Part shown: piece after piece, positions 63,001-64,000 of the stretch
Position numbering within the stretch: the first letter of the stretch is position 1
How the letters are laid out: every line of letters starts with the position of its first letter
Assembly: GCF_057098645.1 (NCBI RefSeq)
Contig: NZ_CM169472.1
Reading direction: 5' to 3' (one strand)
Length of the DNA: 64,000 nt
Program-made: the position numbers

Positions 63001-64000
63001 GAAAATCGGGCCAGTTAAGAGTGAGTTGGTATTCCATGTTAAGCATCCACAGGCTGGTATCTGCAACCGATTATAACGGATGCTTAACGTAATGCGTGAA
63101 GTATGGACATATTTTATCAATTAGTGTTTTTTGCCGTTTCATAATGTTTCAGATTGTTCATTATGTTTTTGATTATAAACAGATTTGTGATTTTCCTTGT
63201 TCCAGCTTGTTTCACGTTGTAGCCCTTTGTGCAACGATCGGTGTAGTTAATGGTGTAGTTAATTGTGATGACCGGAATCAAAATTATGAGCAGAGCACTT
63301 AACAAACTGAGCGATACACAGCTGAGGAAAATCAACGGCACACCCGCCCAAAAAACAGCCTTTCTTAATGACGGTGGAAACCTGAGCGTCAGGCATTCAA
63401 CCAGTGGCCTTTTAACCTGGTATTTCACTTACAGGGCCGGAACGGGAAGGGGGGCACCACCGGAACGCATTAAGCTGGGAAATTATCCTGATCTGAGCCT
63501 GAAATCAGCCAGGGAAAAAGCCGCCCAGTGTCGCGCATGGCTGGCAGAGGGGAAAAATCCACGTCATGAGCTTAATTACACCGTACAGGAAGCGTTAAAG
63601 CCGGTAACGGTTGGCGATGCGCTCACCTACTGGCTTGAGTCGTACGCAAAGGAAAACCGCGTGGATTATGCCGCCCTGAAAAAGCGCCTTAATAATCACG
63701 TAATACAGCACATTGGTGCTATGCCGCTGGATAAATGCGAGCTACGGCACTGGCTGGCCTGTTTTGACCAGGTGGCAAAGCGAACGCCTGTTACTGCCGG
63801 ATTCTTGCTACAGACGTGCAAACAGGCGCTTAAGTTCTGCCGGAGGCGGCGCTATGCAATCAGCAACGTTCTTGATGATATGAGTGTGGCGGACGTTGGG
63901 AAAAAACCGGATATAAGCGAGCGTGTCTTAAGCACCAAAGAACTGGGCGAATTATTGCAGGCACTGGACAAAAAAATATTCTCCCCCTACTACATCGCGT

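Follow-up and report, generated by a model that had tools for sequence, protein, structure and literature searches.

The window, that is, the whole stretch of 64,000 nucleotides that was analyzed, ends at its right edge with the chromosomal gene roxA (ycfD), the spacer next to it and the 5' part of an integrase gene, int (Table 1). The gene roxA forms the left border of an island; it codes for the Pfam domains JmjC_2 (1.7e-41) and ROXA-like_wH (2.9e-34) and ends at position 63037 if the RefSeq start is used or at 63046 if the longest ORF is taken. The integrase ORF starts on the plus strand with the ATG at 63286, which is also the RefSeq start in all identical genomes inspected, and in the window sequence its frame remains open to 63999, giving 238 codons interrupted by neither a stop codon nor a frameshift. 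The nearest in-frame stop codon upstream is the TAA at 63259-63261, which lies within the second copy of a tandem 12-bp repeat. Past this stop, an in-frame ATG at 63268, six codons before the annotated start, is a possible alternative start of int; both starts lack a strong Shine-Dalgarno sequence. Relatives with 91-93% integrase identity have a GTG start instead, with a strong AGAGGGGG upstream.

Table 1. Features at the right end of the window and sequences of the attachment sites
Feature	Position	Strand	Basis
roxA (ycfD), chromosomal gene, left border of the island	61916..63037	-	Pfam; EDL933 RefSeq annotation
Chromosomal part of attL, roxA-side portion of the native 75-bp spacer	63038..63104	.	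K-12 alignment
attL core GGACATATTT, 10-bp direct repeat common with attR	63105..63114	.	Comparison of both island ends
A+T-rich spacer of the int-proximal arm with 10-bp phased T-rich motif	63132..63230	+	TRF; direct reading
Tandem pair of 12-bp repeats, GGTGTAGTTAAT x2, exact copies	63240..63263 (63240-63251, 63252-63263)	+	
5' part of int, codons 1-238 of 409	63286..64000	+	Pfam; identity to WP_000085257 and WP_000085256
attB (K-12): GTGAAGTAT-GGGCATATTT-ATTCATC			
attL: …GTATGGACATATTTTATCAATT…	63105-63114		
attR: …GATAAAAGGACATATTTATTCATC…			

The preliminary description of this DNA had reported an integrase ORF that begins at 63286 and runs off the window, two tandem 12-bp copies in front of it and no tRNA gene at this end of the window. 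All three statements were borne out: the open frame carries an Arm-DNA-bind_3 domain, the repeats form an exact GGTGTAGTTAAT pair, and ARAGORN detected neither tRNA nor tmRNA in positions 55000-64000. ARAGORN likewise found none across the whole EDL933 island, and Rfam gave zero matches at gathering thresholds for the window end and the island. A tRNA, tmRNA or known RNA was therefore rejected as integration target.

The part of int present in the window codes for the arm-binding domain and for the greater part of the central domain, and the catalytic domain is located past position 64000. Arm-DNA-bind_3 (PF13356) was found at residues 8-95 of the window's product with E = 5.1e-18 and 65.4 bits at a cut-off of 27. 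The central domain, Phage_int_M (PF22022), scored 23.7 bits with the window fragment and 22.3 bits with the full-length protein; both values are below the 27-bit cut-off, yet the region aligns with P4 Int. The first 238 residues of WP_000085257 and WP_000085256 are identical to the window's product. Full-length relatives consist of 409 aa and contain PF00589 (Phage_integrase) at residues 214-375 (1.1e-16); results on the catalytic domain come from relatives in which the last 954 bases of the window recur without a mismatch. In the alignment, R249, H335, R338, H361 and Y370 of these relatives pair with the R, H-x-x-R, H and Y of P4 Int, and BLASTP gave 23% identity over 409 columns (E = 5e-15) in an end-to-end alignment of P4 Int and the island integrase. 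Judged by its domains and this alignment, the integrase belongs to the heterobivalent tyrosine recombinases of the P4/CP4-57 type, an assignment that applies at family level only. NCBIfam produced weak sub-threshold integrase matches alone and gave no name to the AlpA-family protein encoded next to int in the relatives.

The last 954 bases of the window are 100% identical to many complete E. coli genomes (EHEC: O157:H7 EDL933, O145, O26 and others), and at least 80% of this stretch is present in 1005 of 5426 complete E. coli genomes. For the window's last 24 kb, megablast against complete RefSeq E. coli genomes returned no 100% match, the best reaching 99.2%. The window's own genome thus being without such a match, the sequence past 64000 is deduced from relatives.

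Comparison of the roxA-phoQ interval with E. coli K-12 revealed an uninterrupted 75-bp spacer there, which represents the empty site. The K-12 alignment reaches the junction at window position 63114 with a single mismatch at 63107. The 10-bp core GGACATATTT was found at both island ends in EDL933, O55:H7, O145, O26, AMSHJX01 and CFT073; the K-12 attB holds one copy of it in the form GGGCATATTT, which adjoins or overlaps the stop codon of phoQ. The final bases of the core overlap the complement of this stop codon, and the attP junction of the circle, as reconstructed, reads …GTGATAAAA-GGACATATTT-TATCAATTAG…. The direct repeat at the island ends together with the position of the core over the phoQ stop indicates insertion at the very end of phoQ, with no tRNA involved; as read from these junctions, the target of the element is the sequence abutting the phoQ stop codon.

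At the core base of window position 63107, K-12 (position 5311 of the K-12 locus extract) has G in the empty site versus A in attL and attR of all occupied sites inspected. Either the crossover would have taken place to the left of this base, or the occupied strains already had the A allele; as the core is just 10 bp long and K-12 differs at one position, the core delimits the crossover segment only approximately. Furthermore, a perfect 11-bp inverted repeat (63038-63048 and 63078-63088, GTTAAGCATCC and GGATGCTTAAC) with a 29-nt loop occupies part of the native spacer that runs from the phoQ stop to the roxA start, and the island is inserted just beyond it. This inverted repeat is also present in K-12 and could act as a hairpin for phoPQ or roxA, either at the transcript end or in regulation. 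The island separates roxA from phoQ by 11-15 kb.

In each of the eight genomes inspected that share this left end, the 409-aa ORF is present with an island behind it. Measured from core to core, the island comprises 15,461 bp in EDL933, 11,212 bp each in O145 RM9872 and O55:H7 USDA5905, 11,089 bp in O26 and 11,452 bp in CFT073; for O145 RM12581 the gene set of the 11.2-kb type was read, the ends having been located by the core in the five islands measured. An alpA gene (PF05930, 5.4e-17), which is outside the window, follows about 365 bp after int in the same orientation in all relatives inspected. The replication gene of the relatives encodes a DUF927 protein, a RepA-family helicase (AAA_25) or a primase-family protein, and no tail or lysis genes are annotated in their islands of 11.1-15.5 kb. 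The order in EDL933 is int, AlpA-family gene, Icd-like gene, DUF927 protein, SSB, PerC-family gene, HK97-type head/packaging module and phoQ. The proposal that a second integrative element begins beside roxA is consequently upheld, since identical relatives have the 409-aa integrase at the left end of an island of 11-15.5 kb. Its designation as P4-type also stands, at family level and with 23% identity to P4 Int, in view of the same three-domain architecture and attP layout.

The satellite family at roxA/phoQ is already known, and both PICI prototypes occupy the site. OI-51 of EDL933, which equals CP-933C and Sp7 of Sakai, carries a P4-like Int and Xis, a P4 alpha-like gene, PchE and RgdR, and CP073-3 of CFT073 resides at a chromosomal location identical to that of OI-51 (PMC3378721). 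Sp7 of O157 Sakai excises spontaneously, its circles accumulate, and it is packaged (PMC2669165). EcCIEDL933 is the prototype capsid-forming PICI; it depends on alpA, is induced by HK106 and HK446, and makes its own small capsids, which take helper tails (10.1101/2022.09.08.507074). EcCICFT073 is the prototype Gram-negative PICI (PMC6092414), its helper is lambda, and PICIs are defined as distinct from P4 (10.1101/2022.09.08.507074; PMC6092414). Hence, the element is an experimentally studied PICI satellite and neither a prophage nor P4. We assign a probability of about 0.88 to the reading that the window ends in attL and int of a PICI which is integrated at GGACATATTT in the roxA-phoQ spacer and whose 12-bp arm sites are included. 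Our own evidence comprises the junctions and the empty site, as well as repeats that occur as pairs at each end, are conserved and match the layout of P4; excision, circularization, packaging, alpA dependence and helper phages are taken from the literature. An explicit description of the att anatomy, with the core at the phoQ stop, two 12-bp arm pairs and a phased TTGT array, was not found in the PICI literature searched and is a small addition.

The 954-base left end precedes two types of cargo with 100% identity. An island of the 11.2-kb type follows it in O145 RM9872 and RM12581, O55:H7 USDA5905, O157 493/89, O26 RM10386 and AMSHJX01 (a panda isolate); the genes of this type code for a RepA-family helicase (AAA_25), SSB, PerC, a lambda E-like capsid protein (PF03864), a decoration protein and a Nu1-like small terminase (PF07471). 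Thus, six of the eight genomes have 11-kb cargo with the RepA-type helicase at the site, CFT073 has a primase-type relative, and EDL933 alone has a cf-PICI. The cf-PICI genes (capsid, prohead protease, portal, head-tail connectors, HNH, TerS and TerL) are all present in EDL933 and absent in O145, O55:H7, O157 493/89, O26, AMSHJX01 and CFT073. Both types have in common the first 2.6 kb (attL, int and alpA) at 98.45% identity and a few hundred bases at the right end, and their middles differ. The left end is therefore uninformative with respect to cargo. At coverage of at least 80%, the cf-PICI head module was detected in 414 of 5426 genomes and the E/D/TerS module in 495; as the right-end sequence is also common to both types, these are genome-wide counts and not specific for the site.

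Since the last 954 bases are the same before both types, SNPs of the chromosomal backbone were used to tell the cargo. The potB-roxA backbone of the window differs from O145 RM9872 by 4 SNPs in 8.5 kb; in roxA alone, 20 SNPs set it apart from O157 and O55. The backbone is O145:H28-like and both O145 genomes inspected have the 11.2-kb type, which makes cargo of the EcCICFT073-like classical type, about 11.2 kb in size, the probable content of this island, as deduced from relatives.

Three other views of the element have to be weighed against the PICI assignment and this choice of cargo. One takes the ORF for a short remnant that no functional element follows: the window stops at int codon 238, and a truncation could follow just after. 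This is very improbable, because all eight genomes with the left end have the 409-aa ORF and a complete island together with attR, the 238 codons are free of stops and frameshifts, and Sp7 in O157 Sakai excises and is packaged (PMC2669165). Just as little credence can be given to a true P4-family satellite that needs a P2-like helper. The P4-type integrase and att layout, the AlpA/Vis-like and Icd-like genes and, in EDL933, the DUF927 protein would fit such a satellite, and older papers called the replication gene P4 alpha-like and the island P4-like (PMC3378721; PMC2669165). However, no equivalents of sid, delta, psu, cI and epsilon, which the P4 record has, are annotated in the islands inspected (EDL933, O145 and CFT073), a comparison made on the annotation of these islands; the published helpers are lambdoid siphophages (HK106 and HK446, and lambda for EcCICFT073). 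A greater, though still small, likelihood attaches to the view that the cargo here is that of the capsid-forming EcCIEDL933, 15.5 kb in size with HK97-type capsid, protease, portal, connectors, HNH and TerS/TerL. The window's last 954 bases match EDL933, where this cargo follows, at 100%, and the packaging module of cf-PICIs is widespread (414 of 5426 genomes); on the other hand, the backbone SNPs have the pattern of O145:H28 and not of O157:H7, and only one of the eight genomes inspected at the site, EDL933, has cf-PICI cargo. The EcCICFT073-like type is hence preferred.

Comparison of a capsid-forming with a classical PICI, carried out with positions 20001-22646 of the EDL933 locus extract, showed that attL-int-alpA and a few hundred attR-proximal bases are 98-100% identical, whereas the middles are unrelated. 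This implies that cargo would have been exchanged between satellites at one att site by recombination. Additionally, the non-coding stretch between the last ORF and attR in EDL933 (locus extract 34655-35092) contains about five copies of a unit of about 29 nt, GGAAnTCGGCGCGGTAACTnnnTGATATT, and two perfect or near-perfect palindromes at 34873-34899 and 35065-35089; the region is partly common to both types. This stretch may serve in packaging (cos/pac) or in regulation.

Apart from the exact pair of 12-bp repeats in front of int, the 64-kb window has no exact 12+12 tandem duplication, and 200 shuffles produced none; the array identified by TRF extends to 63267 with 2.3 copies. A second pair, GGTGTAGTTAAT GGTGTAGTCAAT, is located 74 bp inside attR in the same orientation in every island inspected. 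When the ends are joined in silico, the two pairs flank the core of the excised circle at a distance of 233 bp from start to start: the int-proximal pair lies 125 bp to the right of the core and ends 22 bp before the int ATG, and the far pair lies 74 bp to the left of the core. The position of the repeats upstream of int, as first described, is thus correct, with the refinement that they are situated inside the element and constitute half of its att arms.

The pair is kept 46-47 nt before the int start in IMG/VR relatives with 77-100% integrase identity whose flanks have diverged; usable upstream sequence was available for 18 of 80 loci, as most predicted proviruses begin exactly at the int start codon. 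Within the group of 91-93% integrase identity, both copies have changed together to GGTGTAGTCACT. The Klebsiella element vB_KppS-Ant, with a 50%-identical integrase, has the repeat TGTATAAACA at the same pair-to-pair distance of 233 bp. Furthermore, the GenBank record of P4 lists 12-bp features named "attP arm sequence repeat", which form two tandem pairs flanking the core: one is just upstream of int with the core 112 bp away, and the second lies 53 bp beyond the core. The pair-to-pair distance in P4 is 209 bp and the repeat is GGGGGCA. The repeat sequence therefore differs between integrases of 50% and 23% identity and the layout is kept, as would be expected if the N-terminal domain of Int reads the repeats. 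Position, pairing, conservation and a sequence that changes with the integrase together suggest that the 12-bp pairs are most likely arm-type integrase sites, a putative function assigned by analogy, and that the pair in the window is probably the int-proximal (P') arm, which overlaps the expression signals of int.

In another explanation, the pair might serve as an operator to which an AlpA/Vis-type excisionase or a host factor binds, might belong to a promoter, or might be a neutral duplication that arose by slippage. It lies 22 bp from the int start codon, where a promoter or operator would sit, other proteins probably bind close by at the adjacent 10-bp phased TTGT array, and the reading as arm site is putative and based on layout. 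Nevertheless, a neutral duplication would lead one to expect neither the second pair at the far end of the island, nor conservation across diverged flanks, nor the joint change of both copies. Period, pairing, position relative to int and spacing across the core are all as in the arm repeats of P4, and the variation of the repeat sequence with the integrase (50% and 23% identity) at constant layout fits reading by the Int N-terminal domain; we consider these other roles improbable and retain the arm sites. A third arm-like site inside int on the minus strand (63571-63582, GGTGTAATTAAG, 2 mismatches) was treated as a chance match, because its orientation differs and chance alone would give about 2.6 matches of equal quality per 41 kb. 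P4 has an arm repeat inside int at a similar offset.

The spacer between core and int-proximal pair contains TTGT at 63197, 63207, 63217 and 63227 and a row of period 10 (TRF) at 63136-63168. The phased CTTGT motif persists in relatives of 77% integrase identity with diverged flanks, and the Klebsiella element holds one TTGTTCCAG copy. This phased T-rich array may represent a bend, an array of sites for an AlpA/Vis-type excisionase or the int promoter region, and is regarded as a candidate for these functions. A consensus scan detected no sigma-70-like promoter in 62950-63400. The IHF consensus (WATCAR-N4-TTR) has no match in the window's arm and one match, AATCAATGGGTTG, about 20 bp to the left of the core in the reconstructed attP, i.e. 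on the attR side and outside the window. P4 Int and IntS of KplE1 repress their own genes, as described for an int promoter that overlaps attL (PMC2951348). As the 12-bp pair is located where the int promoter must be, negative autoregulation is likely, and by analogy the int-proximal pair probably also represses int. A more speculative proposal, to which we attach little weight, combines two ideas: att, int and alpA would form a shared "landing cassette" that is swapped between satellites, the window's cargo being perhaps an undescribed combination, and the phased TTGT array would be the target of AlpA in switching from integration to excision.

The following course of events may be envisaged. 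The N-terminal Arm-DNA-bind_3 domain of Int most likely binds the tandem 12-bp repeats, its C-terminal domain, encoded past the window, would cut and rejoin at the core, and bridging of arms and core would build the intasome; the int-proximal pair, 22 bp before the start codon, would double as a repressor site for int. According to published work on two islands at the site, a helper phage would turn on alpA, the neighbor of int, and the island would then excise, replicate, be packaged and re-integrate at the same attB in a new host.

EcCICFT073 (CP073-3) occupies the same attB in the roxA-phoQ spacer and agrees with the element in the 10-bp core and in the 12-bp pairs at either end. Of the 409 residues of its integrase, 399 are shared with the EDL933 allele, and the window's 238 codons match the EDL933 allele exactly. 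Its cargo was compared using relatives of the O145 type, the window itself holding attL and 5' int alone. The gene order is that of the O145 type, with int, alpA, Icd-like gene, replication gene, SSB, PerC, lambda E-like capsid and decoration protein; the O145-type island encodes a RepA-family helicase (AAA_25) where EcCICFT073 has a primase-family protein. In addition, the Nu1-like small terminase (PF07471) of the O145 type takes the place of an unrelated 435-bp ORF of CFT073. EcCIEDL933 is 100% identical over the window's last 954 bases and has the same attL, core, arm repeats, integrase and alpA. It differs in the cargo past alpA, which consists of the DUF927 protein and the HK97-type head/packaging module in an island of 15,461 bp, and in its backbone, which is O157-like whereas that of the window is O145-like.

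P4 resembles the element in the Arm-DNA-bind_3, central and catalytic domains of Int, in the two tandem 12-bp pairs in direct orientation around the core, in the int-proximal pair just before the start codon and in a Vis/AlpA-type gene. In contrast, the integrases are 23% identical, the repeat is of the GGGGGCA type in P4 and of the GGTGTAGT type here, and the pair-to-pair distances are 209 bp and 233 bp. Moreover, P4 targets the 3' end of tRNA-Leu and the island the end of a protein-coding gene, and by annotation the islands at roxA-phoQ are without the helper-exploitation genes of P4. The geometry here is also like that of KplE1 (CPS-53), in which int abuts attL, the P' arm sites overlap the int promoter and IntS represses itself (PMC2951348). 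KplE1 is likened to the element by this geometry; unlike the island, it is a prophage remnant at tRNA-argW with TorI as directionality factor.

For annotation, the right edge of the window is to be described as attL and int of a PICI satellite at the roxA/phoQ site and not as an unknown element. Islands at roxA-phoQ carry regulators of LEE type III secretion, namely RgdR and the PerC-family protein PchE in OI-51 (PMC3378721). They move between strains with helper phages; the cargo type of each EHEC strain is thus of some epidemiological value.

The Klebsiella element vB_KppS-Ant (LR881103.1), a 16.5-kb "induced prophage", was deposited as a phage ("Escherichia phage"). It contains int, a primase gene, an HK97-type head module and TerS/TerL, essentially without a tail module, and its gene content resembles that of a packaged capsid-forming PICI. 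A 766-aa ORF annotated as tape measure protein directly follows terL, which is odd for a satellite.

The site at roxA is separate from that of the prophage at potB, as had been stated in the preliminary description: homology with K-12 ends at 58428 and leaves about 20 bp at the 3' end of potB (window positions 58408-58427) outside it. Both potB (58408-59271) and espK (56683-58044) are on the minus strand, potC is not adjacent to potB, and the final potB codons have given way to the lambdoid effector prophage (nleL, espN, espK).
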